A stretch of 64,000 nt of DNA, taken from the NCBI GenBank assembly GCA_029258925.1, contig JAPDJV010000001.1, forward strand, positions 9,885-73,884. The letters are read 5' to 3'. Position numbers and translations under genes: made by a program. Below are positions 3,823-26,345 of the stretch, piece after piece. The stretch's first letter is position 1. Each line of letters opens with the position of its first letter. The stretch comes from Thermoproteota archaeon (lineage in GTDB: Archaea; Thermoproteota; Thermoprotei_A; EX4484-217-1; JAPDJV01). Under the pieces are notes generated by a model. The model ran no database searches. It worked only from the letters and a program-made list of their open reading frames with translations, and had not been told where the DNA came from.

Positions 3823-4260
3823 GTGAAACACTTGTATAGAGGTGGACCCGGCAGGGGTATGGGTAGGGGAGGGTGGATCCAACCACCTTCAGGCATGCCC
3901 CAAATACCATTACCCCCAAACACGTATAGGGTAGTTACTACAACAATGGATGATAGGGGAGTGGAGTCACTTATAGCTCAACGCTTTACTAGAGCTCCGT
4001 TCATAATGGTGATCGATATTGTAGATGGTAGAGTGGTCAATGTCCAAGCCTTCTCGAATCAGTTCGCTAATTACCCCAGAGGAGCTGGGATAATGTTTTC
4101 ACAATGGATAGCGTCTATTGGTGCTAGAGCAGTACTAGCTTCAAACGTTGGCCCGAATGCAAGCTACGTTCTCCAGCAGGCTGGCATAGCAGTGCACATA
4201 GTGCCTCCTGGAACAAGAATTATTGATGCTCTAAGAAGTTTAGGCATCGCGAGGATGTAG
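3823..4260 (+). CDS. NifX/NifB-C-terminal-like dinitrogenase FeMo-cofactor-binding domain protein
   Basis: C-terminal ~100 aa (RAPFIMVID..GAGIMFSQWIASIGARAVLASNVGPNASYVLQQAGIAVH) matches the NifX/NafY/NifB-C fold; N-terminal 40 aa Gly/Arg/Pro-rich, so real start may be Met at 3946. Confidence 0.5.
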   Translation: MKHLYRGGPGRGMGRGGWIQPPSGMPQIPLPPNTYRVVTTTMDDRGVESLIAQRFTRAPFIMVIDIVDGRVVNVQAFSNQFANYPRGAGIMFSQWIASIGARAVLASNVGPNASYVLQQAGIAVHIVPPGTRIIDALRSLGIARM

Positions 4261-4264
4261 TTCT

Positions 4265-5149
4265 ATGGAGATCGTTGTAGCAAGCGGTAAAGGTGGAACT
4301 GGTAAAACGTTCGTCTCCTCGAATCTAACTTATTTTTTGAGGTCGCTTGGAGCTAAAGTGGTTGCTGTAGATGCTGATGCAGAAGCCCCGGACCTCCTCC
4401 TAGCCCTGGGAGGAGCTTCCGAGAATGTTTATTCGAGAGAAGTCTATAGGTCGCGTAAAGCTGTAATAGACCACGGGAGATGTGTCTCCTGCATGAAGTG
4501 TTTTGAGACTTGCAGATTCAATGCTATAGAGTTATCCAATGGCAAACCCGTTGTTGTTGAAGAGTACTGTGAGGGATGTGGTGCTTGCAGTATTGTTTGC
4601 CCAAGCAATGCTATAAGCTTTGTAGTTAAACGAACAGGTTTAATCAGCTGCGATGTTTCAAAATATGGAATTAAAGTTGTAACAGCCGATCTGGAAGTTG
4701 GTGGAAGAAATACGGGGGAACTGGTTTACATGGCTAAAGAAGAGGCGCATAGAATTGCTGATAGCGAGGGAGCGAAGTACATTGTTGTGGATGCTGCAGC
4801 GGGCATAGGGTGCCCAGTTATATCCAGCTTAGCTGGAGCAGACATATTGATAGTAGTAGTGGAGCCCTCACCCCAGTCGCTTAAGGGTGCCAGAAGACTC
4901 TTAGAAGTAGCGGAGTCTTTTAGGACAAGAAACCTCCTCATATTAAACAAGTACGATTTAAACCCCAATTTCTCCGAAAAAGTTGCTTCAACACTTGGAA
5001 TAGAGGTTTTAGGTAAAATACCCTACGACTACACTATTGTGAAAGCATATGCTAGCATGACACCATTTTTAGCCTATAGTAGTGGGGGGAGAGCTCTTAA
5101 ACCACTCGTAGAATCCTTTAGAACACTCTATGAAGGTGTTTTAAAGTGA
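4265..5149 (+). CDS. MinD/Mrp-superfamily P-loop ATPase with inserted 2x[4Fe-4S] ferredoxin domain (COG1149-like)
   Basis: Deviant Walker A GKGGTGKT; two CxxCxxCxxxC(P) motifs (CVSCMKCFETC, CEGCGACSIVCP). Confidence 0.7.
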   Translation: MEIVVASGKGGTGKTFVSSNLTYFLRSLGAKVVAVDADAEAPDLLLALGGASENVYSREVYRSRKAVIDHGRCVSCMKCFETCRFNAIELSNGKPVVVEEYCEGCGACSIVCPSNAISFVVKRTGLISCDVSKYGIKVVTADLEVGGRNTGELVYMAKEEAHRIADSEGAKYIVVDAAAGIGCPVISSLAGADILIVVVEPSPQSLKGARRLLEVAESFRTRNLLILNKYDLNPNFSEKVASTLGIEVLGKIPYDYTIVKAYASMTPFLAYSSGGRALKPLVESFRTLYEGVLK

Positions 5150-6021
5150 CAAAGATAATTACTGTTGCCGGGGGGAAGGGTGGGACAGGTAAGACGACGG
5201 TTGCAGTAAACCTGTCTTATCTCCTATCCAAGAGGGGGAAGACGATTTTAGTTGATGCAGATGTGGAGAATCCATGTGTTCCCGCAACTATAGCTGGGAG
5301 GATCGTAGTTAATAGAATTGTTGAAGTTAAAGGCTTTAAACCTGTATTCGATTACGGGAAATGCGTTAAATGCGGTCTATGCGTTGAAAAATGTCCAGAA
5401 CACTCCTTAACTATGCTGCCCAGTGGAAGAATAATTTACTTTGAAACCCTCTGCTCAGGATGTAGTTCATGTATGCTTGTTTGCCCAGCGAACGCTATAT
5501 CTGAAGGTTATAGATTGGAGGGATTGTTTAGGTTTGGAAGAGCCTTAGACACCATGGATGTTATTGTAGGCGAGATCGTTCCGGGCAATAGGAGAAGCGG
5601 AGTTCTCATAGCTAGGTTGATAGAGGAAAACTTGGAAAACTTTCGTAAATACGATTTCGTGGTAATTGATTCCCCTCCTGGAACGTTTGCAGGAGTATAC
5701 TCAACAATAAAACATGCTGAAACAATTCTGGCCGTTACTGAGCCAACACCTTTAGGGGTAAACGATCTGAGGAAATTCATTAAGCTTGCTCGGAAGTACG
5801 GTAAAGAAGACATTAACGTGGTTGTAAATAAGTATGGAATACCGGGAGGTTCATATGAGGAAATAGAGCGCATAGTGGAGGAATTAGGACTCCGATTATT
5901 TAAAATACCTTACAGTAGAATAGTGTTCGATTCTGTAGTGCGGGGAGTACTAGTAGTGGAGGAGTACCCCGAATCCGATGCAGCGAAAAGTATAGAGAGG
6001 CTAGCGCTCGCACTCTCATAA
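5146..6021 (+). CDS. MinD/Mrp-superfamily P-loop ATPase with inserted 2x[4Fe-4S] ferredoxin domain (paralog)
   Basis: GGKGGTGKT Walker A; CVKCGLCVEKCP and CSGCSSCMLVCP; start GTG overlaps upstream stop (GTGA), translational coupling. Confidence 0.7.
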   Translation: MTKIITVAGGKGGTGKTTVAVNLSYLLSKRGKTILVDADVENPCVPATIAGRIVVNRIVEVKGFKPVFDYGKCVKCGLCVEKCPEHSLTMLPSGRIIYFETLCSGCSSCMLVCPANAISEGYRLEGLFRFGRALDTMDVIVGEIVPGNRRSGVLIARLIEENLENFRKYDFVVIDSPPGTFAGVYSTIKHAETILAVTEPTPLGVNDLRKFIKLARKYGKEDINVVVNKYGIPGGSYEEIERIVEELGLRLFKIPYSRIVFDSVVRGVLVVEEYPESDAAKSIERLALALS

Positions 6022-6152
6022 GTAGCTTGAAACATATATTCCAGTAAAACTGCTATTAGCAATGGTTAAAGGAGGTGCTGGACCGAGTAAAATACTCCAT
6101 GGATTACTTGCGGCAAGCTCTCTATAAAGAGAGCAATGTCTAAAATGTCCTC

Positions 6153-6413
6153 TCAAATGTTTTCGCCAACTAGCACCTCAAATACTGGCGGGTTCTCAGC
6201 AACTATTTTAACACTTAAACCCTTTTTCCTAGCTATAACTCTTATAGTTTCCACAGGGATCCTCCTAGAATCCGTGATAACTTTTATGATTTCCCCTTTC
6301 CTGAGAGTCTTAACAGCTTTCTTTAGCCTTACTAGAGGGTGTTCCGTACATCCTGGGGGAGGCCTCCTTAAATCTATTATAATAATTTCCTCTTCCAATG
6401 GAGAAGTTTCCAT
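6153..6413 (-). CDS. TusA-like sulfurtransferase / sulfur-carrier protein (variant Cys motif)
   Basis: 86 aa; IDLRRPPPGCTEHPLVRLKKAVKTL aligns with TusA LDxRGLxCPxP..kk; C-x-x-x-P instead of CPxP. Confidence 0.5.
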   Translation of the reverse strand: METSPLEEEIIIIDLRRPPPGCTEHPLVRLKKAVKTLRKGEIIKVITDSRRIPVETIRVIARKKGLSVKIVAENPPVFEVLVGENI

Positions 6414-6416
6414 CGC

Positions 6417-6914
6417 CTACTCACTCCCCATTCTCTTATACATTAACTCCACGATCCTCTCCTCCCCTAACGCCTGTAATTCTTCTCTTGTAAGTTTCTC
6501 GGGAAGCCATTTAGACTTGACCTCTCTACTCTTATAGTATTCTCTAATAGCTCTTCTAAGCGCTCCAACTGCTAGTATGCCGCAGTGATACTTTATTGAG
6601 GGTAATCCGCCTAGTTCATCGGATACGTTTTTCCATGAAATATTCCATGCTTCTTCAAGGCTTAATCCCTTTATCATCTCGGTTAGAATGCTGGCTGTAG
6701 CTATGTTAGCTGCACAACCATAACTCTCGAAAGACGCTCTAACAACTGTTTCCTTCCCATCATCTATTTTCAAATATATTGCTATCATGTCTCCGCATGC
6801 AGGGCTACCTGCAATAGCTTTCACGGAGGCATCATCCATGTAACCCATGTTCTTGGGGTTCCTGAACAACTCTATTATTTTATGTGAGTGCGGTAAAGGT
6901 ATTCTAGTGGACAT
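6417..6914 (-). CDS. iscU: Fe-S cluster assembly scaffold IscU/NifU-N-terminal-like
   Basis: FRNPKNMG..GSPACGDMI..FESYGCAANIATASILTEMIKGLSLEEA..YHCGILAVGALRRAI follows the IscU consensus including the three ligand Cys; ~35 aa C-terminal extension. Confidence 0.75.
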   Translation of the reverse strand: MSTRIPLPHSHKIIELFRNPKNMGYMDDASVKAIAGSPACGDMIAIYLKIDDGKETVVRASFESYGCAANIATASILTEMIKGLSLEEAWNISWKNVSDELGGLPSIKYHCGILAVGALRRAIREYYKSREVKSKWLPEKLTREELQALGEERIVELMYKRMGSE

Positions 6915-8139
6915 TCTTGGCCCTCCTTGGCTTTATTGAGCTTATCCTCCTTAACCTATTAATTGATTCTTGTAACACCTTCAAAGTATACTCCACGTCC
7001 TCGGGGCTATGATATCTAGAAAGTTTGAACAGTATGCTTCCATGGGCCTCCTCGTGTCTCCTACCTATGGCTAAGAGGGCGTGGCTTGGTTCTAAGACTC
7101 TACTCGTGCAAGCACTCCCGCTCGAAACATATATTCCGTTAAGGCTTAACTCGATTGTTATAGCCTCTCCCTCAACATATAGGAAACTGACGTTGAGATT
7201 ATCTACAACTCTCTTCTCCCCTAATAGTCCGTTTACGAGTACTTCCTGAATTTCATCGAGTATCCCATTCAATAGCCTTTCTCTAAGCTCTTTAACATAA
7301 GTTACCTGCTTATTGAAGTCCCTGTAAACAAGCTCGGCAGCTTTATGGAACCCCACTATAGATGGTACATTCTCTACTCCCAGCCAAAGCGTTTGAGTGC
7401 TCAGTGCTCCATGGATTATTTTCTCGACTTTAACTCCATTTCTCACATATAGTGCACCTGCGCCTTTAGAAGCCAGTATTTTATGGTTGCTTAAAGTTAG
7501 CATGTCGACTCCAAGATCCTCAACGTTTATTGGAATCCTGCAATAGGCGTCAGCTGCATCAGTGTGAATAAGGGTTTGGGGATTAATTTCTTTAACAATT
7601 CTGCTTATCTCTCTCAAAGGCTGAATTGAACCTATTTCGTGGTTTACCAGTTGAATGCTGACTAGTACAGTGTCTTTGTCTATGAGTATTTCAAGAATAT
7701 CTAGGTCCACTATTCCTTCTTCGTCCACAGGTACTTGAACCACTTTAAAGCCCAGTTGTTCCAGACTATTTGCCGGTAAGAGTACACTGAAGTGTTCTAT
7801 GGCTGAGATAATTACCTTTCACTTCTTCCCTCCAATAGTGCTTCCAATTATTGCGAGATTATTCACCTCAGTACCACTATGTGTGAAGAATATTTCATCT
7901 GGTGAAGCATTTATGCTGCTTGCAATGAACTCTCTTGCTTCTAATAGAGCTTCAAGAGCCTCCCATCCCGGTTTATGAGTTATGGATGGATGACCATATC
8001 CTCTCTCATTGAAATACAGTATCATAGCTTCCAATACTTCCCTAGGAACCCATCCACTATTTTCCAGGTCGTAGTATACTTCCCTCGTAGGCTTTCCATG
8101 AACTCTCAATAACTCCCTTATCTTAGCTGACTCACTCAT
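6904..8139 (-). pseudogene. iscS: cysteine desulfurase IscS/NifS family interrupted by a single in-frame TGA (at 7819..7821)
   Basis: ORFs 7819..8139 (N-term, ..TEVNNLAIIGSTIGGKK*) and 6904..7743 (..LSNHKILASKGAGALYVR.., SGSACTS) are in the same frame; the stop-free reading KK*KVIISAIEHFSVL aligns with IscS KKGKHIITSKTEHKAVL, the TGA falling on a conserved Gly. Confidence 0.65.
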
Positions 8140-8211
8140 AAAATTATCTCTACTCGAATATACATATATAACACTGTTACAAATATCTTTCTAAGAGGAG
8201 GTACAGGAATA

Positions 8212-9447
8212 TTGGCTTTAAACCCTCATTTAATTAGAAGAGACTTCCCCATCTTAAATAGGAAAATCTACGGGAAGAAAATAATCTACTTGGATAATGC
8301 TGCAACATCTCAAAAACCATTACAGGTCATCAACGCTATTAAAAAATTCTATGAGACAAATAACGCGAACATACATAGAGGCGTACATAAGTTAAGCGAT
8401 GAAGCAACAGACTTATACGAGAAAGCTCGGGAGACTGTAGCCTCCTTCATAAATGCCGAGAAGTCTGAGAACATTGTCTTCGTTAGAAATACTACTGAGG
8501 CATTGAACTTAGTTGCATATTCCTGGGGCTTATTTAATGTTAATCCAGGCGATGAAATAGTTTTATCTATCATGGAACACCACAGCAACATGCTTCCGTG
8601 GATCAAACTTGCCGAAGTGAGGAACGCAGTAATTAAAATAGTCGATGTTGACGATTATGGAAGGCTCTCCATTGATGATCTAGAGGAAAAAATAACCGAG
8701 AAAACAAAGCTTGTGGCGATAACCCACATGTCAAACGTTACTGGGGTAATAAACGACGTAAAGAAAGTTACTAGAATAGCCAAGAGGCGGGGGGCAGTAG
8801 TGGTCGTCGATGGAGCACAAAGCGTGCCGCACATGCCAGTCGACGTTAGGAATATTGGAGCAGACTTCATGGCTTTCAGCGGCCACAAAATGCTTGGCCC
8901 AACTGGGATAGGAGTACTATATGTGAGTGAGGAGAGACTTAATGAAATGAACTGTTTTCTAACTGGTGGAGGAGTGATAAAGGAGGTGCACTACGTTAAT
9001 GGAGGGATAAGCGTTAAATGGGCTGAGCCACCATGGCTTCTCGAGGCTGGCACACCTAATATAGCGGGAGCAGTTGGCCTAATGGAGGCAGTCAACTACC
9101 TTAGGAGTGTGGGATTGGAGAACATTAGAAGGCATGAAATTGAACTAGTAAAACACTTACTTGACAGGTTTGCAGACGAGTTCAAAAACATACGTTTATG
9201 CGGTCCCCTAGATATTGTGGATAGGGGTGGAATAGTATCTTTCACTATAGGCTTATTCGATCCCCACAGCACAGCTATATTCCTAGACAGTGAGGGAATA
9301 GCTGTTAGAAGCGGCTTCCATTGTGCACAGCCACTGCACGAAAAGCTAGGATTTACTAGGGGAAGTGTTAGGGCAAGCTTCTACATATATAATACTGTGG
9401 AAGAAGTTGATTTTCTAGTTGAAGCATTGAAGAGAATTGTCCAGTGA
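8212..9447 (+). CDS. SufS/CsdA-type (class V aminotransferase fold) cysteine desulfurase
   Basis: 411 aa; N-terminal RRDFPIL..IYLDNAATSQKP, PLP-lysine context FSGHKMLGPTGIGVLYV, C-terminal GFHCAQP..RASFYIYNT typical of SufS group II. Confidence 0.7.
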   Translation: MALNPHLIRRDFPILNRKIYGKKIIYLDNAATSQKPLQVINAIKKFYETNNANIHRGVHKLSDEATDLYEKARETVASFINAEKSENIVFVRNTTEALNLVAYSWGLFNVNPGDEIVLSIMEHHSNMLPWIKLAEVRNAVIKIVDVDDYGRLSIDDLEEKITEKTKLVAITHMSNVTGVINDVKKVTRIAKRRGAVVVVDGAQSVPHMPVDVRNIGADFMAFSGHKMLGPTGIGVLYVSEERLNEMNCFLTGGGVIKEVHYVNGGISVKWAEPPWLLEAGTPNIAGAVGLMEAVNYLRSVGLENIRRHEIELVKHLLDRFADEFKNIRLCGPLDIVDRGGIVSFTIGLFDPHSTAIFLDSEGIAVRSGFHCAQPLHEKLGFTRGSVRASFYIYNTVEEVDFLVEALKRIVQ

Positions 9448-9494
9448 ACTCTAAGCTTTATATTTGAGTATAACACTGTTATATAGGGTTAGAA

Positions 9495-10441
9495 ATGAAA
9501 GCTGTTAAACAGAGAGCTAAGAGTGTTTCCAAACACCCTATCCCTGCTCGTAGATAACTGGCCAACACGCTTGTTAGGCTTGAAACAGAGTCGCATGGAG
9601 GTAAAGAGGTTTGGGCAAAGCTGGAATGCTATAATCCATTTAGTAAGAGCATAAAAGGATAGAGCAGTATGGGGTATGGTATTGAAGATGTTGGAGAAGA
9701 GGAGTCTAACAGAGGTCGTTATGGAGGCTACCTCAGGAAATGTGGGATTATCTCTTTTAAGCATTTGTAACATTCTAGGATTAAAATTCACTGCATTCAT
9801 TTTCTCGACAACTCCTCAAGCAACTGAGACACTCTTGAAGACTTTCGGAGCAAATGTTATCAGAACAAACTATGAAACAATAAACCAGGAGTTCTGGAGA
9901 GAGGTCCAAGAGTATGCCGAGAGTACTGGTGCCATCAATTTAAATCAATTCGAAAACGATGCAAACTTCGAAATCCACTACAATACTACAGCAGTGGAAA
10001 TATTGAAACAGTTGGAATCCATAGGTAGGAAACCGGACTATGTTTTTGCTGGAATAGGAACATCAGGGCATATAGCAGCTATTACTAAGAGAATTAGAGA
10101 GCGCTATGGTGGGAATGTGAGAGTTATAGGTGTTCAACCAGCTAGAGGATGCTCTATTCCTGGAATCAAGAGGGTTGAAACTAAGCCTAAGTGGATAAGG
10201 TGTGTGAGCGTAGATGAAGTGGTTGATGTAAGTAGAGCCGAAGCCATTGAGGGTACCATAGATTTGGCTATTAGGGAGGGTATATGTTGGTTTGAGCTCT
10301 GGAGCAGTCTATTCAGCCTACAAGAAGAAAGCCGGTATTAGGGGAACCTGTGTTCTAGTGTTTCCAGATGATGCTTTCAAATACGTTGAAGTATTCGAGG
10401 AATACTTGGCTCTTTCCAGACACCGCTTAGGTTTCAAGTGA
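9495..10441 (+). pseudogene. cysteine synthase / O-acetylserine (O-phosphoserine) sulfhydrylase family (PALP) pseudogene with three lesions
   Basis: Three frames give LANTLVRLETESHGGKEVWAKLECYNPFSKSIK / DRAVWGMV..TSGNVGLSL.. / IVGLSSGAVYSAYKKKAGIRGTCVLVFPDDAFKYVE, all cysteine-synthase hallmarks; in-frame TAA at 9555, +1 shift near 9655, +1 shift near 10285. Confidence 0.6.
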
Positions 10442-10738
10442 TTTTAATTTGTTAAGACTCTCTTAATGCTGTGAGTGCATGCTGATGTTACATGTTTGCC
10501 TAGTTTTCTACTCTCATAAACACTATTGGTCAGAGGAATATAGCGAGAACCAAGCTTCATCCTTATCTCAGTTTCCTCATTGCTCATCGGCTCAGTTCGA
10601 GGAGAAGTCCGAAGTGTTCAAGGGAGTTTTGGAGAGAAGGGAGAGAACGATCAGAGAGCTAGGGTTCTGAAAGATTATGTGGGAAACGGCATGAGGGTGA
10701 TGAAGGGGAGACGTGGAAACTATCAAAAAACTTGGATC

Positions 10739-11296
10739 CTAACAATGAGTGTTGAAGCACTTGGTATAGTTGAGTATCGTGGAGGCTTTCATCAGCGACT
10801 TGAAGGGAACTCCCATGCTCTCTATTCTACTCCTAGCACCCTGCTCTCTATCAACTACTACAACAGCTAAGATGGGCTCACCACCCTCGCTTCTAATAAC
10901 ATTTATAGCCGATGCAATGGAGCTTCCGGTAGTTGCCACATCGTCTACTATAATAACCCTCAAATTCTTAACGAATCCTTCAACTATCTTCATCTCCCCG
11001 TGCTCCTTTCTCTCCCTCCTAACATACGCCATAGGCTTGTTAGTTAATACAGCCATATAGCATGCTAAAGGTATGCCTCCAGTCGCTATTCCAACAAATC
11101 CATCGCACTCATCGACAGGAGATATCTCCAGCAATCCCTCTACAATTAGCCTAAATAATCTGGGTATACTCGGTACCGGCCTTAAATCTATGTAGTAAGC
11201 GCTTTTGATTCCACTTGTGAGAGTGAATTCTCCGAATTTGACTAGACCGTGTCTAAGCATAGATTCCACGATGTATTTTAGACGGTCGTCATCCAA
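10739..11296 (-). CDS. pyrE: orotate phosphoribosyltransferase
   Basis: 185 aa; PRPP-binding motif VIIVDDVATTGSSI; overall OPRTase pattern. Confidence 0.8.
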   Translation of the reverse strand: MDDDRLKYIVESMLRHGLVKFGEFTLTSGIKSAYYIDLRPVPSIPRLFRLIVEGLLEISPVDECDGFVGIATGGIPLACYMAVLTNKPMAYVRRERKEHGEMKIVEGFVKNLRVIIVDDVATTGSSIASAINVIRSEGGEPILAVVVVDREQGARSRIESMGVPFKSLMKASTILNYTKCFNTHC

Positions 11297-11354
11297 TTTA
11301 ATCGCCTTTAATTGAACTAGTATTTCAAACTATTAATTTAACTGTTGTCATGTT

Positions 11355-12023
11355 CTAGCCGTAGATTTTAGCTATTTTCCGCCTAGGATTATCCGAATAC
11401 GTTATGAGTCTACCTACGATCTCGTAATCAGCACCTGCTTCCAACGCTGTTTTAGGTGCAGCTCCTTGAGGTCCTATTCCAGGGGACAATATTTTCAGTC
11501 TGACTCCAACAATTTTCCTGATTTTACGTATTATTTGGGGTCTAGTTGCAGGGGCAACAACTCCCCATACACGTGCATTCTCGGATATTGCTATTAAGTT
11601 CTCTAGGTGCATGTCTATTAGTTCCATGGAGCCTGGATGACTCATGGAGACCACTGTTATCAGTTTCATGGACATTTCACTACATGTTTTAGAGAGTTCT
11701 CCCAGTCCACCTGCTAAACCTATGAAGGCGTGGGCTATTATTGCATTATATCCTACTTCACTCACTCTCTTCAATACTTCAGACATTATGAATCCTATGT
11801 CGGCAAGCTTGAAGTCCGCGATCTTTAGTTCACAGCTTCCCATAGCGTCTGCAAGCTCCTTCAAACCTCTCAAACCCACGTCTAAGAGTAGGGGGAGACC
11901 GATCTTGTAGCCCGCAACAATGTCTGCTGTAGACTCTATTATCCCCTTGCACCATTTTAATGAATCCGCTCCTCTAGGAGGGTCGAGCGCTATTATTACG
12001 TCTCTAGCTTTGATGGCGTCCAC
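11355..12023 (-). CDS. pyrF: orotidine 5'-phosphate decarboxylase
   Basis: 222 aa; IIALDPP..GYKIGLPLLL..ADFKLADIG motifs of OMP decarboxylase. Confidence 0.8.
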   Translation of the reverse strand: MDAIKARDVIIALDPPRGADSLKWCKGIIESTADIVAGYKIGLPLLLDVGLRGLKELADAMGSCELKIADFKLADIGFIMSEVLKRVSEVGYNAIIAHAFIGLAGGLGELSKTCSEMSMKLITVVSMSHPGSMELIDMHLENLIAISENARVWGVVAPATRPQIIRKIRKIVGVRLKILSPGIGPQGAAPKTALEAGADYEIVGRLITYSDNPRRKIAKIYG

Positions 12024-12030
12024 CCCTACG

Positions 12031-12468
12031 TTACTCGCTCAATATTATCTCGGTAAGGTAGTCTATTAGCTCTCTTATAGCATCCTTATTGATCTCGTAC
12101 ATTCTTATCTTCTTATAGCTCCTACACTTCACTATACCTAGACTCCTCATTAAGGCTAGGTGGTGGGAGATTAGGGTGCAGTCCTTATTCAGTATTCCTG
12201 CTATCACACATACACAGTGCGGTCTCCTCATAACTGCGAGCATTTTCAGTCTCAAGGGATTAGACAAACACTTCATCAGTAAAGCCGCTTTCTCCAACTT
12301 CTTATTTGAGGGCACCACTATTTCTTCCTCTAATCTATCCTCGTACGAGGATATTACATCCTCATGGTTCTTATAGTTTATTAATACGTCTTTCACCTTC
12401 AATATCATACCCTCCCCACCCAGTGTAGCCAATGAAATTCTTTTAAACATTTCACCACATTTACCCAT
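12031..12468 (-). CDS. ArsR/SmtB-family winged-helix transcriptional regulator
   Basis: 145 aa; LSNPLRLKMLAVM..CVCVIAGILNKDCTLISHHLALMRSLGIV matches the ArsR HTH (CVC metal-site-like); only 7 nt upstream of pyrF. Confidence 0.55.
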   Translation of the reverse strand: MGKCGEMFKRISLATLGGEGMILKVKDVLINYKNHEDVISSYEDRLEEEIVVPSNKKLEKAALLMKCLSNPLRLKMLAVMRRPHCVCVIAGILNKDCTLISHHLALMRSLGIVKCRSYKKIRMYEINKDAIRELIDYLTEIILSE

Positions 12469-12550: not shown

Positions 12551-13690
12551 TTGAAGGAGAGAGTGTTGATAGTCGATCCCATTAGGAGCGGTGGTGTAGT
12601 ACCTGAGAGTGTGAAGAGAAGTCTTCTGGAATATTTGAATGGCTACTCTGTTTGCATGTACTGTCCAGGAGATTTACACAAAATAACTAAACCAAATATT
12701 AAGAGACTTATTCAAGTAGATCTCCCGGAGTTCATGGGGGCAGATGTTGTGAGACTAGTGCACGGTGCGAGAGAAGCATTTTTCACAGTATTCTACGCCT
12801 TATTCAAGGAACATGTTTTGACGCGGGGTGATAGGGCCCCAGTTATAGTTGTTGATGGAAATACACATTACTCTCTGGAGCTCGCGGCAGAGAGGTCTCT
12901 TCTGAAAATTATTGAAACGGAGACTTCTGGTTATCCATTGTTCAAAGTTGGTCTAGAACATTATGAGGAGGCTTTAGAGTCTGTTGTGGAGGAACACGGT
13001 AAGCCCCCTCTCGTAACATGCATAACATATCCCGATGGAAAATACGGTAACTTCCCCGATAACATTAAGGGAATAATTAAATTAGCGAGGGAACATGGTA
13101 GCTATACTCTAATCAACGCAGCTTACTCCATTGGAAGAATGCCCGTGAGCTTAAGGGATCTTGAAGCAGACTTCATCGTTGGGTCGGCACACAAGTCTAT
13201 GGCGTGTTCAGGACCCTTGGGAGTACTTGGAATGAGGGAGGAAGCGGCAAGTTTAGTATTGAAGAGAAGTGTTCGCCATCCATCAAAGGAAGTAGAGTTG
13301 CTTGGCTGTACCGTTAGAGGTCTGCCTGCAGTATGCCTCATCATGGTAATGCCTTATCTGAGGAGGAGAGTTAAGGAGTGGGAGAGAGTAGTCGATCTAG
13401 CTAGATACTTCTACGAGAGAGCTGAGAGAGAGCTGGGGTTAATGCTTTTGGGAGAGAAACCACATAGCCATGACCTACTTCACTTCGAAACACCTGCTTT
13501 CTACAAGATTTCCCTAAAACTGAGAGACAGGTTTTTCTTATACAAAGAGTTGAAGAAGAGAGGCATTATTGGAGTTAAGCCTGGAATAACGAAGAGAATT
13601 AAATTGAGTACTTACCTACTTAATAGGGAAGAGGTAGACTACGTTCTAGACAGTCTAAGAGAAATATTGGAGTTAGGTGAAGGTGACTAA
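12551..13690 (+). CDS. O-phospho-L-seryl-tRNA(Cys):Cys-tRNA synthase (SepCysS), PLP-dependent
   Basis: 379 aa fold-type I PLP enzyme; CxxC near residues 35/38 (CMYC), PLP-Lys in SAHKSMAC followed by a Cys, the conserved trio described for SepCysS; immediately upstream of and overlapping a SepRS-like gene; TTG start. Confidence 0.6.
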   Translation: MKERVLIVDPIRSGGVVPESVKRSLLEYLNGYSVCMYCPGDLHKITKPNIKRLIQVDLPEFMGADVVRLVHGAREAFFTVFYALFKEHVLTRGDRAPVIVVDGNTHYSLELAAERSLLKIIETETSGYPLFKVGLEHYEEALESVVEEHGKPPLVTCITYPDGKYGNFPDNIKGIIKLAREHGSYTLINAAYSIGRMPVSLRDLEADFIVGSAHKSMACSGPLGVLGMREEAASLVLKRSVRHPSKEVELLGCTVRGLPAVCLIMVMPYLRRRVKEWERVVDLARYFYERAERELGLMLLGEKPHSHDLLHFETPAFYKISLKLRDRFFLYKELKKRGIIGVKPGITKRIKLSTYLLNREEVDYVLDSLREILELGEGD

Positions 13691-15215
13691 TGTGAAACTT
13701 GATATCCAAAGAATTCTAAGAGACTTGGATAAAGAAGAGTTCACTACGGTTTGGGGAAATTATTCTGAAATAATTCCTAGAAAAGGAGGCAAATTAAAGC
13801 TTCCTGAGACCGAGGGCAAGCCCAGCATACTGTTAGAAGTGCTCTTCAAAGTTAGGAAAGCGCTTCTGAACTTAGGGTTCGAGGAAGTGGTCAATCCAAT
13901 ATTCATAGATTCCTCTGAAGTATATCGCCAATATGGTCCTGAAGCCCCTATAATACTTGACAGAATATACTTTCTAGCAGATCTCCCAAGACCAGACATA
14001 GGGTTAGATAAGAAGACCGTTGAGAAAATTAAAGCGATCTCCCAGAACATAAATTTGAGAGTACTTCAAGCAGTTCTGAGGGAGTACAAGGAGAGGAAAA
14101 TAAGTTCTGATGACCTCGTAGGCGAGTTGAAGAAGAGACTACATATTGAAGACCACGAAGCTCTCAAAATACTCGAACTTTTCGAACCCCTAATAAAGCT
14201 CACCCCAATACCGTCATCTCTAACTCTGAGATCCCATATGACTGGAGCCTGGTTTTCTACAATATCGGAAATCTTGGAGTGGAGAGATCCCCCACTATAC
14301 CTATTCTCAATAGACTGGGTTTTCAGGAGGGAACAAAGAGTTGATGAATCCCACCTAAAGTATTATCATTCAGCCTCCATAGTTGTAGTTGATGAGGATC
14401 TTAGTGATGATATAGCTCACAGCTTGACTAGGATAGTGCTAGAGAAAATAGGTTTCAAGAAGTTCAAGACAGTGTTGAAAGATGATACAGCAAGATATTA
14501 TGCCAAGGGCAGGGAGTGGGAGGTATATTTAGATTTCATGGGTGAAGAATATGAGGTTGGAACTTACGGACTATACTCTCCAATATCCCTAGCAAAATAC
14601 GGCATACCCTACCCAGTCTACAACTTCGGTATAGGCTTAGAGAGGCTGGCTCAGGTCATAGTTGGTGAGAGAGATATTAGGAGAATCCTTTTCCCATACA
14701 AATACTTTAAGCTCAGCGATCAAGAAATAGCGGAGCGCATAAAGCCCTTAAGGAGGCCGGAGACGTCTAAGGGAAAACATATCGAGAGAGTGCTGCTGGA
14801 AAAAATATGGGAGCTAAAGGATAAAATTGGTCCATTCAAGGAAAAAATCTACGAGGATGAAGATGTTACGATATTCCTGTGGGAACCAGATCCTAAGCCG
14901 TATGCTGGTAAAGCAACTTTCAACAAGATCTATGTTAAGGACGGGGGCATTATCAGTAGCATAGAGGATATAAGCGGAGTGTACATTGGCCGCTATGTGG
15001 ACTTTATAGTTAAAATGATAGCGTCAAGTATTGAGAGAGGGTTCAGGGGAGTTATTAGGGTTAAGTGGGCTAATGGTCCCTCGGACATAAACGTGCATAT
15101 TCCAAGTAAGATAGTGAAATACATTAACACTATTGGTGGGAGAATAGATATTAAAGGACCTGTGTTTGTAGATGTGATAGTAGAGGACTCTACTAAAGAA
15201 AAGCTCAAAACATAA
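13677..15215 (+). CDS. O-phosphoseryl-tRNA synthetase (SepRS), class II aaRS related to PheRS alpha
   Basis: 512 aa; class II motif 3 GIGLERLAQVIVGERDIRRILFPY located mid-protein and followed by ~180 aa C-terminal domain, the SepRS layout rather than PheRS; 14-nt overlap with SepCysS. Confidence 0.55.
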   Translation: MKVTNVKLDIQRILRDLDKEEFTTVWGNYSEIIPRKGGKLKLPETEGKPSILLEVLFKVRKALLNLGFEEVVNPIFIDSSEVYRQYGPEAPIILDRIYFLADLPRPDIGLDKKTVEKIKAISQNINLRVLQAVLREYKERKISSDDLVGELKKRLHIEDHEALKILELFEPLIKLTPIPSSLTLRSHMTGAWFSTISEILEWRDPPLYLFSIDWVFRREQRVDESHLKYYHSASIVVVDEDLSDDIAHSLTRIVLEKIGFKKFKTVLKDDTARYYAKGREWEVYLDFMGEEYEVGTYGLYSPISLAKYGIPYPVYNFGIGLERLAQVIVGERDIRRILFPYKYFKLSDQEIAERIKPLRRPETSKGKHIERVLLEKIWELKDKIGPFKEKIYEDEDVTIFLWEPDPKPYAGKATFNKIYVKDGGIISSIEDISGVYIGRYVDFIVKMIASSIERGFRGVIRVKWANGPSDINVHIPSKIVKYINTIGGRIDIKGPVFVDVIVEDSTKEKLKT

Positions 15216-17341: not shown

Positions 17342-18301
17342 TTGAAATGTAAATATTGTAATGGAAAAGCTGTAATATATGTTAGGAGAACAAGGACACC
17401 GCTCTGCCCCAGCCACCTAGAAGAATACCTCATAAAAAATGTGGTAAAAGTCTTCAAGCACTATAGAATAGACTTGTCAAATAAGAAGATATTGATAGCG
17501 TTATCTGGCGGTAAAGATAGTTCAACTATGGCGAGTTTAATGAAGAAGCTTTCTGAAGTAGAAGACTTTGAGGTTGTCGGATTATACATCGACCTCGGCA
17601 TACCAAAATATTCTGATTACAGCTTGAAAGCTGTAGAAAAACTTTCGAGAAGCCTCGATCTAGAAGTTAGAACAATAAATCTTAGGGAAGCCTTAGGCTT
17701 CAATATTTCCGATACCGGATTTAAGAGGAGGACTATTTGTAGTGCATGTGGAATAATAAAGAGGTATCTAATGAATTATGCTGCATTAGTCGATGGTTGC
17801 CAGATCATAGCGACTGGGCACACTTTAGACGACATAACAGCCTACATTCTCAAATCCTACATAACACAGGATCTGAAAAGTCTCGTAAAGTTAGGCGTCT
17901 ACAATCCGCCTTTAAACAAGCTTATCCCCGGAAAAGTTAAGCCCCTCGGATACGTAAGTGAGAAAGAAAGTTTAGTTTACGTGTTATCATCGAATTACCC
18001 CTTCTACCATGAGGAGTGCCCATACGTCTCCCATGAAACCATAGAATTCCAAGCAAAGAGATTTCTCAACATGGTTGAAGCCAAGCATCCAGGCATAAAA
18101 CTTTACATGCTTAGAGAATACGAGAAAAATAGGCAATTATACGAGAAGCTGGTGGAGTACCCACCACTAAGGAGATGTAAAATATGTGGTATGCCTTCTC
18201 AAAGAGAAGTTTGCTCTTTTTGCAGCATAGTAAAGAGAATTACTGGAAGCTATGATAGCGTTCTAAAAATGTGGGAGAATAATTTTCTCAGAATCATTTA
18301 A
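17342..18301 (+). CDS. tRNA 2-thiolation PP-loop ATPase, TtuA/NcsA (Ncs6/Ctu1) family
   Basis: 319 aa; N-terminal CxxC..C..H zinc finger, PP-loop SGGKDS, C-terminal CKICG..CSFCS zinc finger. Confidence 0.7.
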   Translation: MKCKYCNGKAVIYVRRTRTPLCPSHLEEYLIKNVVKVFKHYRIDLSNKKILIALSGGKDSSTMASLMKKLSEVEDFEVVGLYIDLGIPKYSDYSLKAVEKLSRSLDLEVRTINLREALGFNISDTGFKRRTICSACGIIKRYLMNYAALVDGCQIIATGHTLDDITAYILKSYITQDLKSLVKLGVYNPPLNKLIPGKVKPLGYVSEKESLVYVLSSNYPFYHEECPYVSHETIEFQAKRFLNMVEAKHPGIKLYMLREYEKNRQLYEKLVEYPPLRRCKICGMPSQREVCSFCSIVKRITGSYDSVLKMWENNFLRII

Positions 18302-21202: not shown

Positions 21203-21486
21203 TTAGATAAACCGATATTAATTAAGCATTTCCTAAATTATATTAATTAGAATTATATTGATTAGCTGAAGAATCAGTACTGTTAAGTCAAAAGACTAGC
21301 ATTCGAAACCAGAGCTCTGAGCAATTTCAAGCATAAAGAATTTCTTAATTTTAAACATGTCCAATACTACTATTTGCTATCGTGCTTTCTCTCTGCATTA
21401 ACCGTAATTCTTTAATTAACTCCTTCACTATTTCCCTTCGCATACTAAAAGATGAGGCTAGAAGACTTGCTAGATACTTTTCATTA

Positions 21487-21880
21487 TTATAAAGTAATTT
21501 TTACAAATATGTTTAATGATACCCCAACAGCGCTCACTAACTCCAATAGTATTGCATATAGTGCTCGAAGATCTTGTCTCTCTCCTTCAAGAATTTTCCT
21601 GAAAATATTTGACATGATGATTACGTTATCGTATATTAATGGTTCCAAGAGAGTCCCTGCATTCTCTCCAGCTACCCCCACTGCTAACCTCTCCGATGTC
21701 AATTAGAGTTTTAAGGGTTTCAGCTATTTTCAAGTGTTCGCAAGCCAACCACTTCAATAATGTTTTGAGTTTCAAGTCTCCTACTCTATTAGCGAATTCG
21801 ATTTTAGCCTTAACACTAGCATACATAAGCTTGTAGAAACACTTCGCCCAGTTCTCTACTTCAGCAGAATTTAAAGCCAT
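21487..21880 (-). pseudogene. small helical protein gene split across two overlapping frames at a C5/G5 run (ferritin-like? frameshifted)
   Basis: ORFs 21626..21880 and 21487..21702 overlap by 77 nt; frames switch at the GGGGG run (21675..21679 on plus strand); joint product ~135 aa. Confidence 0.2.
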
Positions 21881-21957
21881 ATATTTACATCATACAAGTA
21901 ATTAATTTGGCAGAACCAACTAAAATTAGTTAGGTAGTAATAATAATAAGACTATTA

Positions 21958-22890
21958 CTATAATCTGTGGGCTAAACCTACGCACTGACCTAAATCACTT
22001 ATTTCGAGTTTAACCAGTAGTTCTTCGAATTCGTGTAGGATCTCCCTAAGAACCACAACACCTCTATCAATTATAGCTGAACCAACCTGTATAGCGCTTG
22101 CTCCAGCAAATATCATTTCAAGAGCAGATTCGCCGTTTACTACGCCTCCAGCTCCTATTATTAGTGGTTCTAGTTCGGAGTATACTTCATAAATTAGTCT
22201 CACAGCAACTGGGTGGAGAGGTGGGCCTGATAATCCTCCATAAATATTTGTTAGAACTGGTCTCCCAGTGTAGACATCTATGATCATGGCTTTAATGGTA
22301 TTTGATATGGTCAATGCTTTTGCACCTGCTTCAAGAGCTTTCCCCGCTATCTTGACTATGTTGTCCGATGGGCCAAGCTTCGCTATTACAGGTATCTTAA
22401 GTACCGATGAAACCATACCTGTTATGTACTTGGTTGCCTCAGGGTCTTGGCCGAAGACTAGTCCGTATCCCTCGGTGTGGGGGCAGCTTAGGTTTAACTC
22501 TACTGCTGACGCTTTGGCCTCCTCTGCTTCAATAGATACTTCAAGATATTCGTCGGCTGACGACCCCGCAACGCTAACTATTACTGGTACACCGAGTTCA
22601 AGCCCTACACTAACAATACTCCTAATAATCTCTTTCCCGGGGTTCTCTAGTCCAACAGCATTTATGTACCCACCGCAGGGGAGTTTTACTAGGATAGGCG
22701 GATTGTTACCTAATCTAGGTTTAGGAGTTATGGACTTCGTTACAACAGCTGAACACCCTCCTTCAACAATGAGCCTTCTAATTAGTCCTGGCGAAGAAGA
22801 CACTACTCCAGACGCGTTCATAAATGGGTGTGCGAGTCTTATTCCCGCTAGGTTTATTCTTAAATTAGGGTGCGAATTATTTATTTGCAA
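21958..22890 (-). CDS. pyrD: dihydroorotate dehydrogenase catalytic subunit (class 1B)
   Basis: 310 aa; LAGIRLAHPFMNASGV.., FMN-binding TIM-barrel motifs; follows pyrK. Confidence 0.8.
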   Translation of the reverse strand: MQINNSHPNLRINLAGIRLAHPFMNASGVVSSSPGLIRRLIVEGGCSAVVTKSITPKPRLGNNPPILVKLPCGGYINAVGLENPGKEIIRSIVSVGLELGVPVIVSVAGSSADEYLEVSIEAEEAKASAVELNLSCPHTEGYGLVFGQDPEATKYITGMVSSVLKIPVIAKLGPSDNIVKIAGKALEAGAKALTISNTIKAMIIDVYTGRPVLTNIYGGLSGPPLHPVAVRLIYEVYSELEPLIIGAGGVVNGESALEMIFAGASAIQVGSAIIDRGVVVLREILHEFEELLVKLEISDLGQCVGLAHRL

Positions 22891-24130
22891 TCACCTCTCC
22901 ATCATAGAATACTATTTTGCCTTTAACGATGGTTGCATGTATTCTGCATTTAACCGCGAAGTTTTCGAAAGGCGTGTACTTTGCTTTACTATAGAAGTTC
23001 TCAGGTTTTATTTTATATTCTTCCCCCAATTTAAGTAGTGTCATCGAAGCAACATACCCCCTCTCTATTTCACCCATCCTATGTAGTCCGAGAATTCTGG
23101 AAGGATTCCTACACATCAACTTCACAATATCGCTTACGGATATTACATTTTTTTCTACTAGCGTCCACGTCAGCGGGAGCATTGTTTCCAATCCCGGAAT
23201 CCCGGAGGGGCAGTTCATGAAAGATCGTTGTTTCTCTTCTAGGCTGTGGGGCGCGTGGTCGCTGGAAATACAGTCGATTAAGCCTGTTCTGAGAGCAATC
23301 AGCAATCCCTGAACTATGGTTTTCGGCCTTAAAGGCGGATTGACTTTTCCGTAACACCCATATTCCTTCTCATAAGAATTATTTAGGAGCACGTAGTGGG
23401 GGCATGTATCAACAGTTGCGCCAAGAGCCCTAGCTCTTACGGCGGTCTCAAATGATGTTATGTGCGTGAAGTGTATTCCGGAAATCATGTTACCGAATTT
23501 TTCCTGAAAGTATGCTACTGACTCCAATTCCGCTCTAAGAGGTCTGTATCTCCACCTCATGCCTGGAACAGTAGTCTCCCTTAGACATTCCGGATGCTCC
23601 GGATGTACTACGACTAGTTTCCTCTTTTCCAAGGATTTCGAAACACATTCTCCTAGAATCGGTGAGTGGTAGTCTTCAGGGTACACTTTGAGTCCGGCCA
23701 CCTTCTTCTCAGATAACAGAGAGTCTGCTTCCTCAATTCTACTAGGTACGCCGACATATACCAGGTAGTCTACTATGCACTTCTCTTTTAGAGACTTTAT
23801 TTTCTCCTTTAATACATTAAAGCTTCTTATCTGGGGTCTAGTATTGGGCATGTCGGCTACTAATACTACTCCCCCCGCTGCCGCTGCAGCTGAACCAGAA
23901 GACTCGTCCTCTTTATACGATAATTCTAGTCCTCGGAGATGTACGTGCATGTCGACTACTCCCGGAATCAGAAGAAAACCGTTTTCTACAGAGTAATCTA
24001 GTACTGTTTCGGCTCTCTCCGAGTAAGCTTCTCCGTGAACGCCCTTTATTATCCCGTTTTCAACAGTAACTGTACCTTTAACTATTCTTCCTCTATAGAA
24101 AATGTTCCCCCTATAAACGATGTCTGCCAC
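22877..24130 (-). CDS. pyrC: dihydroorotase
   Basis: 417 aa amidohydrolase; VDMHVHLR metal motif, DHAPH; sits inside the pyrB-I-K-C-D operon. Confidence 0.75.
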   Translation of the reverse strand: MADIVYRGNIFYRGRIVKGTVTVENGIIKGVHGEAYSERAETVLDYSVENGFLLIPGVVDMHVHLRGLELSYKEDESSGSAAAAAGGVVLVADMPNTRPQIRSFNVLKEKIKSLKEKCIVDYLVYVGVPSRIEEADSLLSEKKVAGLKVYPEDYHSPILGECVSKSLEKRKLVVVHPEHPECLRETTVPGMRWRYRPLRAELESVAYFQEKFGNMISGIHFTHITSFETAVRARALGATVDTCPHYVLLNNSYEKEYGCYGKVNPPLRPKTIVQGLLIALRTGLIDCISSDHAPHSLEEKQRSFMNCPSGIPGLETMLPLTWTLVEKNVISVSDIVKLMCRNPSRILGLHRMGEIERGYVASMTLLKLGEEYKIKPENFYSKAKYTPFENFAVKCRIHATIVKGKIVFYDGEVIANK

Positions 24131-24909
24131 TATTTAACCTCCAGCCATTCAACTACTTCCTCTAACAAGAATCCTGGACCATCTCTGCACACTAGCAATC
24201 CGCTTCCATCGATTTCGCAAGACCCACATACACCTAACCCGCATTTAACCATGTTCTCCAATATAACCCATGTTTCAACGTCTCTAAATCTAGCTATACC
24301 CTTAGCTAAATATTTGAGCATCGGTTTCGGGCCGCATGCAACCACTTTAGTATAGGTTTCTGCTTCCAGCAATCTTAGTGCTAACTCTACTGCAGATCCC
24401 TTGAAGCCTATTGACCCGTCATCTGAAGATATGTAAATTCTTGAACAAGTTCCCCTTAAAAGTCCGCTAATATCCCCTATTTCACTTGCGCTTCTTCCTC
24501 CGAAAACAATCGTATGTTCTATCTTTTTCGACTCGAGTTCTTCGTGTAACATTTTGATGGGAGCTAGCCCGCTTCCCCCTGCAACAAGCAAGTATTTCCC
24601 ACTTCCATCCAGCTTTAAGGCTTTACCTAATGGACCCTTAACACCTATGGTTTCTCCCTGTTTAGCATTAACTAGGCTTAACGTTGTTCGACCCACAGGC
24701 TTCACTACTAGTTCAATTAGATTCTCCTTGCAACCCGCGATACTCATTGGTATGGATTCGAGTCCTGGAATCCATATCATTACAAACTGCGGGCTTCTAG
24801 GCTTAAAGGGCAACTCCTTTAATAGCTCGATTTCGACGTGATAGAGCGTTTCAGATATTTTCGTACAATTAATTATTCTAGCTGGCCTCATAGATCCCTT
24901 ATCCAACAT
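24130..24909 (-). CDS. pyrK: dihydroorotate dehydrogenase electron-transfer subunit (FAD/NAD, 2Fe-2S)
   Basis: 259 aa; ferredoxin-reductase-like fold, C-terminal CGLGVCGSCE cluster. Confidence 0.75.
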   Translation of the reverse strand: MLDKGSMRPARIINCTKISETLYHVEIELLKELPFKPRSPQFVMIWIPGLESIPMSIAGCKENLIELVVKPVGRTTLSLVNAKQGETIGVKGPLGKALKLDGSGKYLLVAGGSGLAPIKMLHEELESKKIEHTIVFGGRSASEIGDISGLLRGTCSRIYISSDDGSIGFKGSAVELALRLLEAETYTKVVACGPKPMLKYLAKGIARFRDVETWVILENMVKCGLGVCGSCEIDGSGLLVCRDGPGFLLEEVVEWLEVK

Positions 24910-24922
24910 TTTTTCCCTTCAC

Positions 24923-25402
24923 CTATAATTTGCCTACGAGAACCATGCCTTCTGTACCAATTATGATCTTACAGTATTCACATTGCAGTTTTATCGGATC
25001 CCTTGATATGAGGATGAACGATGTTTTCACAGGCTCGTTTGGAGCGTTTGTTATGCACGTTGGATTAGGACACTTTATTAATCCTTTTATCCTCGACGGT
25101 AGCTGGACTTTTCTCTTCGTTATTACCTCGTAGTTCTCTATTATGTTTATTGTTGCTGTTGGAGCTATCAGTGATATGAGGTTCGTTTCGTCTTCTTCAA
25201 GTCTCACATTTTCTATTTTCACTATATCCTTCTTGCCCAGCTTTCTGCTTTCCACATTCATTATTAAAGCTATCCTCTGACCCCTAATCTTCTCTGCTTT
25301 AAGTATACTTAGAACTCTCAATCCCTTGCCTGCTGGTATGTGGTCTATTACTGTTCCGCTATGGATCTTGGGAACTATTAGTCTATGTGGTTCAACACTC
25401 AA
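24923..25402 (-). CDS. pyrI: aspartate carbamoyltransferase regulatory subunit
   Basis: 159 aa; Zn domain [13 protein letters not shown]. Confidence 0.8.
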
Positions 25403-25406
25403 TAAC

Positions 25407-26345
25407 TTACACCTCCACCCCGAAAATTAGTGTTAGAAGAGCCATTCTAACGGGTACTCCCAGCTTAGCCTGATAGAAATATGCTTGATAAGGGGATTTG
25501 TCTACCTTGGGATGTATTTCGTCTACTTTGGGCAGTGGGTGAAGTATTTTAAGGTTTTTCCTAGCATTTTTCTCAAGAAACTCCAGTGTAATCCTGTATG
25601 CACCCTTCACCCTCTCATACTCCATTGGATCCGGAAACCTCTCTTTCTGTATCCTTACGACGTATAGTACGTCTAAGAGTGAAATCACATCTTCTATGTT
25701 ATCGTATTCCTCATACTTTAAGCCTCTCTTCTCTATTGCTTTCAAAACCTCCTCTCTCAACTTCAATGGAGGGGGCGCTATGTAGTATACTTTGTTTGGT
25801 TTGAACAAGGTTAGAGCATAGGAGAGGCTTGCAACAGTTCTAGCATACTTTAAATCTCCCATGATACCTATGTTTAAGCCGTCTATGTCCCCAAATAGCC
25901 TATAAATAGTGTATAGATCCAGCATTGACTGGGTCGGGTGTTCGCATCTTCCATCTCCAGCGTTCACCACAGGGTTTTCAGCTATTTCGGCAGCATATCT
26001 TGCAGCTCCCTCCAAGTTATGTCTCAATACAATTATGTCAGAGTAAGCATCGAGCATTCTAATAGTGTCTGTAAGGTTCTCTCCCTTCATTACACTAGTT
26101 GCTTCGACGCTCGAGAAACCTATTACATCCCCGCCAAGCCTTTTCATGGCAGTAGTAAAGCTTAGTCTTGTCCTCGTAGACGGCTCGAAGAATGCTAGAG
26201 CCATGATTCTGCCTCTCAGAACATTCAACCCTCTGGTTTTACTACGCTCTATGCTATAAGCTCTCTCGAATAATGTCTCCAAATCGGACTTGGAGAAGTC
26301 CAGGATTGATATAATATCTTTTCCCCTAAACGACACGAAGCCCAT
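25407..26345 (-). CDS. pyrB: aspartate carbamoyltransferase catalytic subunit
   Basis: 312 aa; STRTR carbamoyl-phosphate motif, HPLP motif. Confidence 0.85.

Follow-up and report, generated by a model that had tools for sequence, protein, structure and literature searches.

A cysteine synthase gene is very probably decaying, strain by strain, in an uncultured lineage of Thermoproteota. The gene lies at 9495-10441 on the plus strand of a 64,000-nucleotide (nt) stretch, here called the window, of contig JAPDJV010000001.1 (Thermoproteota archaeon assembly GCA_029258925.1), and our view of the genome is this 64-kb window. We read the locus, with a probability of about 0.9, as a unitary pseudogene whose ancestor was a cysteine synthase of the archaeal O-phosphoserine-sulfhydrylase type, in the PALP-fold branch to which CysO and Tk-CysK belong. 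As a pseudogene it is an ordinary kind of feature, and it is unusually well documented as ongoing decay.

Joined across three forward frames, the locus encodes a complete PALP-fold protein, as the original prediction had proposed for a cysteine-synthase-family gene. All five motifs quoted in that prediction are present, and the Pfam PALP profile PF00291 matches the reconstruction over model positions 10-295 of 295 (E 4.2e-54, 184.3 bits). The longest single open reading frame (ORF) in the locus is 221 amino acids (aa; 9676-10341). Cysteine synthase models are the nearest in NCBIfam, yet their scores lie far under their cut-offs: TIGR01136, TIGR01138 and TIGR01139 reach 170.1, 159 and 147.3 bits where 344, 394 and 351 are required, below the level of a bacterial-type CysK/CysM equivalog. 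Such scores indicate that the reconstructed protein belongs to a distinct archaeal PALP branch rather than to canonical CysK/CysM. We found 464 homologues. The intact ones, mostly from 'Thermoprotei archaeon' metagenome-assembled genomes (MAGs), are 58-66% identical over ~90% of the length, which exceeds chance; the best locus among GTDB representatives reaches only 58% identity.

The reconstructed gene retains every residue that its family holds invariant. The motifs SKSIKDR, ATSGNVG, GIGTSGH and GLSSGA are all encoded, spread over three frames, and fall in invariant alignment columns; all 24 aligned sequences share the K-D-R of the pyridoxal phosphate (PLP) lysine motif. The pseudogene still encodes each of the 54 invariant alignment positions, and the death of the gene is therefore recent. 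Intact orthologues in Guaymas-type 'Thermoprotei archaeon' MAGs (proteins P0002, P0007 and P0011; loci L036 and L002/L084) have the same length, the same 58-66% identity and the same RVFPNT..WPTPLVRLE motif, and form uninterrupted ORFs of 319-322 aa.

Comparison with characterized enzymes points to a role in cysteine synthesis. The best match among solved structures is Aeropyrum pernix K1 CysO (APE1586; PDB 1wkv, 3vsa, 5b36), with 1wkv aligning to reconstruction residues 10-303 at E 3e-47 and ~36% identity. The alignment begins at a shared VFP...PTPLVR, and the two proteins also have in common the S-x-K-D-R lysine, TS(G/S)N, GTSGH, PGI(K/R)RVET, whose Arg297 position is basic in both, and an FKY C-terminus. 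In the 1wkv alignment, Arg297 of the A. pernix O-phosphoserine sulfhydrylase (OPSS) corresponds to the Lys of PGIKRVET, which is invariant in the family of the locus. CysO carries an ~80-residue N-terminal extension absent from the locus, and it is a functional enzyme, whereas the window copy is frameshifted at three or four places. In Tk-CysK (TK1687) of Thermococcus kodakarensis, studied by Makino et al., Lys188 is equivalent to Arg297 and has a role in O-phosphoserine recognition; deletion of the gene causes cysteine auxotrophy, and O-phosphoserine is the proposed substrate (PMC5120207). Thermococcales members of the family are cysteine synthases of the short archaeal kind; they share 53-56% identity with the reconstruction and are annotated ~40 residues shorter at the N-terminus. 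TK1687, whose orthology to the locus we infer from size, annotation and family matches rather than from sequence alignment, is intact and essential without added cysteine, unlike the window copy. By analogy with CysO and Tk-CysK, the intact ancestor would have made free L-cysteine from O-phosphoserine and sulfide.

Set against a 99%-identical contig and 23 homologues, the window copy shows three definite interruptions of the frame and a fourth that is probable (Table 1). The original prediction had also listed three lesions, starting with an in-frame TAA at 9555-9557. Homologue alignment overturns this first one. Upstream of 9568 the homologues place the coding frame in that of the central block, where KLLNRELRVFPNTLSLLVDNWPT aligns with ELLNKALRVYPDT of P0018 and RVFPNTISLLIDGWPTPLVRLE of P0002, and the TAA falls across GAT-AAC (Asp-Asn), outside the coding frame. 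The frame-0 N-terminus of that prediction, MKAVKQRAKSVSKHPIPARR followed by a stop, is an out-of-frame reading that the same alignment rules out. This N-terminal segment is homologous to the N-termini of P0002, P0004, P0012 and P0018 and to VFPSPLDFFERGKPTPLVR of A. pernix OPSS. Lesion 1 lies 12 nt downstream of the TAA and was placed by alignment with the 99%-identical contigs L001/L041, which keep the extra C. A ribosome arriving from the N-terminal segment would read RLLGLKQSRMEVKRFGQSWNAIIHLVRA, 28 wrong codons, and then meet a TAA at 9652-9654.

The two remaining predicted lesions are frame changes, one of them of a different type than proposed. The 1-nt insertion predicted near 9655 (lesion 2) stands: it is the extra A of the AAAA at 9654-9657, where the 99%-identical contig has AAA. 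Near 10285 (lesion 3) the frame does change, as predicted, and a 1-nt insertion is the less likely form of that change. In the motif EG[LIVM][LF][IVL]G[LM]S[SA]GAV, 23 of 23 aligned homologues are one residue longer than the locus, with no length variation. Because all 23 carry this additional residue, we read lesion 3 as most likely a net 2-nt deletion that left one T of a lost Leu/Phe codon.

The start region probably holds a further lesion, lesion 0, common to all haplotypes. Without its extra A, ATG A AAG CTG TTA AAC would read M-KLLNRELRVFPNT, which fits the N-terminal lengths and motif of intact homologues, ...(K/R)(E/A)(K/L)RVFPNTISLLxDxWPTPLVRLE. The extra A brings a TGA at 9496-9498 into the coding frame, and L041, L091 and L092 have this region unchanged. 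Upstream of the pseudogene lie two TATA-like stretches, at 9458-9465 and 9479-9486. In L091 a TA insertion at window position 9458 falls in such a stretch, CTTTATATT; it may be a change to the promoter of a gene that was dead by then.

Assemblies from other samples reproduce the lesions and nest them in step with divergence. We compared the locus with contigs from seven other public datasets that cover it. Contig L090 (ERZ25515786, SPAdes) is 100% identical over window positions 6870-12447, and L093 (Logan, SRR21024894, 51 kb) differs by three substitutions and two indels over 18,139 bp (99.97%), none of them in the gene; both carry exactly the lesions of the window. Haplotype C, represented by L091 and L092 (ERZ584659 and ERZ27227321; 99.2% and 99.6% identical), has lesions 1, 2 and 4. 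L091 spans 10285 and has lesion 3; L092 ends at ~10060, short of that site. Lesion 4 strikes a position intact in the window and is seen in L091, L092, P0123 and P0125. Haplotype B (L041 = L001; JGI 3300014911 / ERZ1742239), which differs by 12 substitutions in 1.5 kb, has only lesion 3 and the start-region sequence, without lesions 1 and 2. Lesion 3, and probably lesion 0, thus occurs wherever its site is spanned, lesions 1 and 2 occur in haplotypes A (the window, L090 and L093) and C, and lesion 4 is confined to C. Lesion 3 is the oldest datable lesion; three other datasets contain truncated products (P0001, P0126 and P0124) that end in the same out-of-frame tail, ...REGICWFELWSSLFSLQEESRY.

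This nested and replicated pattern is not that of random assembly error. If the lesions were sequencing or assembly artefacts, chiefly homopolymer miscalls, the gene would be intact in the cell. Lesions 0, 1 and 2 do have the typical form of such errors, each adding or removing one base in a short run (AAA, CC, AAA), and assemblies occasionally disagree on indels, as the window and L093 do in a G6/G7 run elsewhere. Yet these lesions recur across SPAdes, MEGAHIT-style (k141), JGI and Logan assemblies drawn from five or more dataset groups and nest with nucleotide divergence, lesion 3 lies outside any homopolymer, and no other broken gene is found among the ~60 ORFs of the window apart from the adjoining iscS. 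We consider an artefact exceedingly unlikely. The contention of the original prediction that this is a real decaying gene and not a base-call error is borne out by exact recurrence in L090 and L093 and by nesting in L041/L001 and L091/L092; its proposed comparison with close relatives yields just these nested lesion sets from other samples.

The lesion series gives an order of decay. The shift at 10285 came first, probably joined by the additional A behind the start codon, and it removes the GLSSGA loop with the rest of the C-terminal 50 residues. Next came the -1/+1 pair at 9567/9568 and 9654-9657, which scrambles 29 codons, that of the PLP lysine among them, and runs into a TAA. One sub-lineage later gained the further deletion at 10043.

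A second, younger pseudogene lies next to the SufS gene that directly precedes the cysteine synthase. It encodes an IscS/NifS-type cysteine desulfurase whose 412 codons are open save for one in-frame TGA. The TGA is present in the window and L090, and L093, L094, L095 and L096 have GGA at this codon. P0257, the intact 411-aa product of L093 and L094, differs from the window IscS at the TGA codon alone. Since the near-clonal L093, like L094, has GGA, the nonsense mutation is very young, later than all cysteine synthase lesions. Selenocysteine insertion or other recoding of the TGA was considered and rejected: sister strains have a Gly codon, and across the window no Rfam family, SECIS included, reaches its gathering score and no tRNA of any kind, tRNA(Cys) included, was detected.

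Haplotype B, which has the fewest cysteine synthase lesions, carries IscS indels of its own. Two agreeing assemblies (L095 = L096) show +1, -4 and +3 changes at window-equivalent positions 7554, 7982-7985 and 8020, which sum to zero yet put 143 codons out of frame. By these sequences, IscS has been independently inactivated two or more times. In all IscS copies sequenced across the codons concerned, near-invariant positions are replaced (ILGPKG to ILASKG, WPGVEN to WLGVEN), which hints that constraint had relaxed before the disabling lesions.

No reading frame of the window cysteine synthase gives a complete enzyme, with frame changes at 9567/9568, 9654-9657 and 10285, and the gene is therefore very probably without function; the sequence likewise suggests that no functional product is expressed from the locus. 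Function might instead persist by way of programmed ribosomal frameshifting or recoding, or because fragments of the enzyme are translated separately and then assemble. Lesion 3 is found in every contig spanning its site with the 49-codon frame downstream still open, the indels sum to zero in both multi-indel genes (-1/+1 in the cysteine synthase, +3/-4/+1 in the haplotype B IscS), and the 54 invariant residues persist. Persistence of conserved residues is, however, expected in a very young pseudogene whose haplotypes differ by <1%. On reading 10279-10290 we noticed no slippery motif, and the spacing there suggests a lost residue. The stretch between lesions 1 and 2 meets a TAA in the frame of the ribosome and would replace the catalytic lysine, and sub-lineages keep gaining lesions, as dead genes do. 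Continued function is accordingly very unlikely, and we retain the pseudogene reading.

The two losses lie close to an alternative route to Cys-tRNA(Cys). Genes for SepCysS and SepRS lie 2-5 kb downstream of the pseudogene and overlap by 14 nt; the SepRS presumably belongs to a divergent crenarchaeotal clade, and SepRS is known from uncultured Crenarchaeota lineages (PMC5424206). The original prediction held that the decay fits the presence of these genes. Both are indeed there and intact; that they brought about the loss is plausible. Cys-tRNA(Cys) would be made directly from O-phosphoserine by SepRS/SepCysS, and the habitat, apparently Guaymas-type hydrothermal sediment rich in sulfide, would supply sulfide in plenty. 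Both free-cysteine synthesis and IscS-type sulfur mobilization would thereby become dispensable, and the cysteine-consuming IscS desulfurase would be lost in parallel with the cysteine synthase. SepRS and SepCysS causing the loss, with sulfide, is our inference.

A true pseudogene could also have been lost for reasons unrelated to SepRS/SepCysS, through a paralogue or import of cysteine or peptides, or because the gene never served cysteine synthesis and acted, for example, in a sulfur relay with the flanking desulfurases. The window, 64 kb of the genome, does encode an oligopeptide/nickel-type ATP-binding cassette (ABC) transporter (50827-52458 and neighbours) and an M28 peptidase. An IscS-IscU-PALP-SufS sulfur cluster includes the gene and is kept in the nearest relative, and the scores of the gene fall well under the NCBIfam cysK/cysM cut-offs. 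On the other side, no second PALP homologue is present in the 64-kb window, the closest characterized relatives are bona fide cysteine synthases using O-phosphoserine, and co-loss of cysteine synthase and IscS under SepRS/SepCysS and sulfide has precedent (PMC7585200). We regard an unrelated cause as unlikely, though far from negligible.

Several points weigh against our account of the locus. The lesion evidence consists of assembled contigs rather than raw reads, and some seemingly independent assemblies may share samples, L001 and L041 as well as L095 and L096 being identical over their overlaps. The case for lesion 0 is a modest similarity to homologue N-termini. Between haplotypes A and B the pseudogene shows five nonsynonymous and three synonymous substitutions, counts too few to show relaxed constraint, and the intact SufS gene has a nonsynonymous excess as well (3:1 against L041/L095/L096; V/I, A/V, L/P). 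With 64 kb in view, the cell could have another cysteine synthase, encode a CysRS or take up cysteine, and the cause of relaxed selection is correspondingly conjectural. The adjoining SufS-family desulfurase is intact, so cysteine has probably not been given up altogether.

Methanogens offer the closest parallel. Methanococcales rely on SepRS/SepCysS without IscSU and build Fe-S clusters from sulfide rather than cysteine (PMC7585200). In Methanococcales and Methanopyrales, tRNA-dependent cysteine synthesis goes with the absence of cysteine desulfurase and with sulfide as sulfur donor (PMC7585200; PMC5424206). Cysteine synthase and IscSU genes are simply absent from these methanogens, whereas in the lineage of the window they are recognizable and inactivated strain by strain. 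The organism is a relative within Thermoproteota, not a methanogen, and its SufS-family desulfurase and IscU are intact. We raise as a tentative possibility, one we rather doubt, that, within one SepRS/SepCysS-bearing Thermoproteota species, co-existing strains are inactivating cysteine synthase and IscS independently, in a retreat from free cysteine as sulfur currency that is driven by selection, not drift, and converges on the sulfide-based, tRNA-dependent economy of Methanococcales.

The locus records gene loss as a dated series across metagenomes. In the cysteine synthase the series runs from one or two lesions through three or four to four or five in the same gene; for the adjoining IscS, one near-clonal strain keeps an intact gene, another has a nonsense codon and a third has frameshifts. 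Such series form a natural experiment: once SepRS/SepCysS and ambient sulfide make free-cysteine synthesis and sulfur mobilization from cysteine dispensable, in what order are the two lost? Presence/absence comparisons among methanogens have so far been the only approach to this question. The locus is best annotated as a pseudogene, not as three small ORFs or as 'cysteine synthase'. Metabolic reconstruction calls for caution here: a PALP match to the 221-aa or a 272-aa fragment would wrongly score the organism as cysteine-synthesizing.

Table 1. Coordinates of the decayed cysteine synthase, its lesions and neighbouring genes in the window
Feature	Position	Strand	Basis or remark
Probable ancestral ATG start	9495..9497	+	Inferred; now one base off the coding frame
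Putative lesion 0, extra A in AAA run after ATG	9498..9500	+	Frame analysis, homologue N-termini
Coding segment A, KLLNRELRVFPNTLSLLVDNWPT	9499..9567	+	Frame of 9499; translation, homology
Alternative start GTG	9523	+	As called for P0001
TAA of the original prediction	9555..9557	+	Out of coding frame (GA-TAA-C, Asp-Asn codons); no lesion
Lesion 1, 1-nt deletion in Pro codon of WPTPLVRL	9567..9569 (between 9567/9568)	+	ACA CCG CTT to ACA CG CTT
Coding segment B, LVRLETESHGGKEVWAKLECYNPFSKSIK	9570..9656	+	Shifted frame; translation; ends at PLP-lysine codon
Lesion 2, 1-nt insertion, AAAA for AAA	9654..9657	+	Catalytic PLP lysine codon (SIKDR)
Coding segment C, DRAVWG...TSGNVG...GIGTSGH...PGIKRVET...REGI	9658..10284	+	Part of 221-aa ORF; Pfam PALP match
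Lesion 4 site	10042..10047	+	Intact in window; haplotype C has G10042A and one T lost, giving ...KPDYILLE and a stop
Lesion 3, frame change before GLSSGA loop (REGI / VGLSSGA)	10285	+	Homologue alignment, contig comparison
Coding segment D, VGLSSGAVYSAYKK...VLVFPDDAFKYVEVFEEYL...GFK	10286..10441	+	Third frame; stop TGA 10439-10441; aligns with all homologue C-termini
Nitro_FeMo-Co (domain of unknown function) protein plus a tandem pair of MinD/ParA-like ATPases, both with 4Fe-4S ferredoxin domains inserted	3823-6021	+	
TusA-like ORF, 86 aa	~6150-6410	-	Beyond IscU
IscU/NifU scaffold, intact	6417..6914	-	Downstream of broken IscS
IscS/NifS-type cysteine desulfurase, second, younger pseudogene	6904..8139	-	In-frame TGA 7819-7821 (Gly GGA in sister strains)
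SufS-family cysteine desulfurase, intact	8212..9447	+	Directly upstream of pseudogene; TIGR01979, 538.5 bits, above cut-off
pyrE, pyrF, ArsR regulator			Downstream of pseudogene, before SepCysS
SepCysS (Sep-tRNA:Cys-tRNA synthase), intact	12551..13690	+	TIGR02539, 424.8 bits against cut-off 365.25
SepRS (O-phosphoseryl-tRNA synthetase), intact	13677..15215	+	TIGR00470, E 7e-111, 371.3 bits, just below cut-off 380.65; model 7-530/533
TtuA-like PP-loop protein	17342-18301		Downstream of SepRS; AhcY follows

The genes around the pseudogene form a dense sulfur and Fe-S trafficking neighbourhood (Nitro_FeMo-Co, MinD/ParA, TusA-like, IscU, TtuA-like, SepCysS, AhcY). Locus L036, which holds the nearest intact orthologue P0002, has a similar IscS-IscU-x-PALP-SufS cluster with ThiF-like, ThiI and ThiN/ThiL proteins, so the link of the PALP gene to cysteine desulfurases is conserved. 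The Guaymas-type MAG orthologues likewise share IscS-IscU and a 411-aa SufS-family protein with the window; their gene order differs, the PALP gene lying upstream of SufS on the same strand as IscS-IscU. Among the ~90 loci fetched, SepRS/SepCysS was found within 10 kb of no intact PALP orthologue.

Outside the pseudogene the window looks intact: of its ~58 other long ORFs, IscS alone is interrupted, and no further broken gene is seen. We checked ~30 of them against profiles: most match at full length and none looks truncated, several having a partial-domain match or none. Genome-wide decay is not supported as an explanation, since the checked ORFs appear untruncated. The largest stretches without a long ORF are 21203-21957 (755 nt) and 34124-34705 (582 nt), which hold only short overlapping ORFs; neither contains an Rfam match at gathering score or a tRNA, and inspection of ORFs, made without a profile search, recognized no gene remnant in them.

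Elsewhere in the window, a G run at 5078-5083 within the plus-strand ORF 4265-5149 has 6 G in the window and 7 G in L093; with the seventh G, the MinD/ParA-ferredoxin protein has 278 aa instead of 294. The G6 version looks native, as its C-terminus resembles the paralogue at 5146-6021 and overlaps the next gene. A single-T indel relative to L093 lies at window position 2364, just upstream of the minus-strand ORF 1374-2360, which encodes a bact-PGI_C/SIS protein. The window also carries two paralogous dihydroorotase genes on the minus strand, of 417 aa each: one (22877-24130) within a pyrB-pyrI-pyrC-pyrK-like-pyrD cluster (21958-26345), and the other (52610-53863) adjoining the oligopeptide/nickel-type ABC transporter operon.

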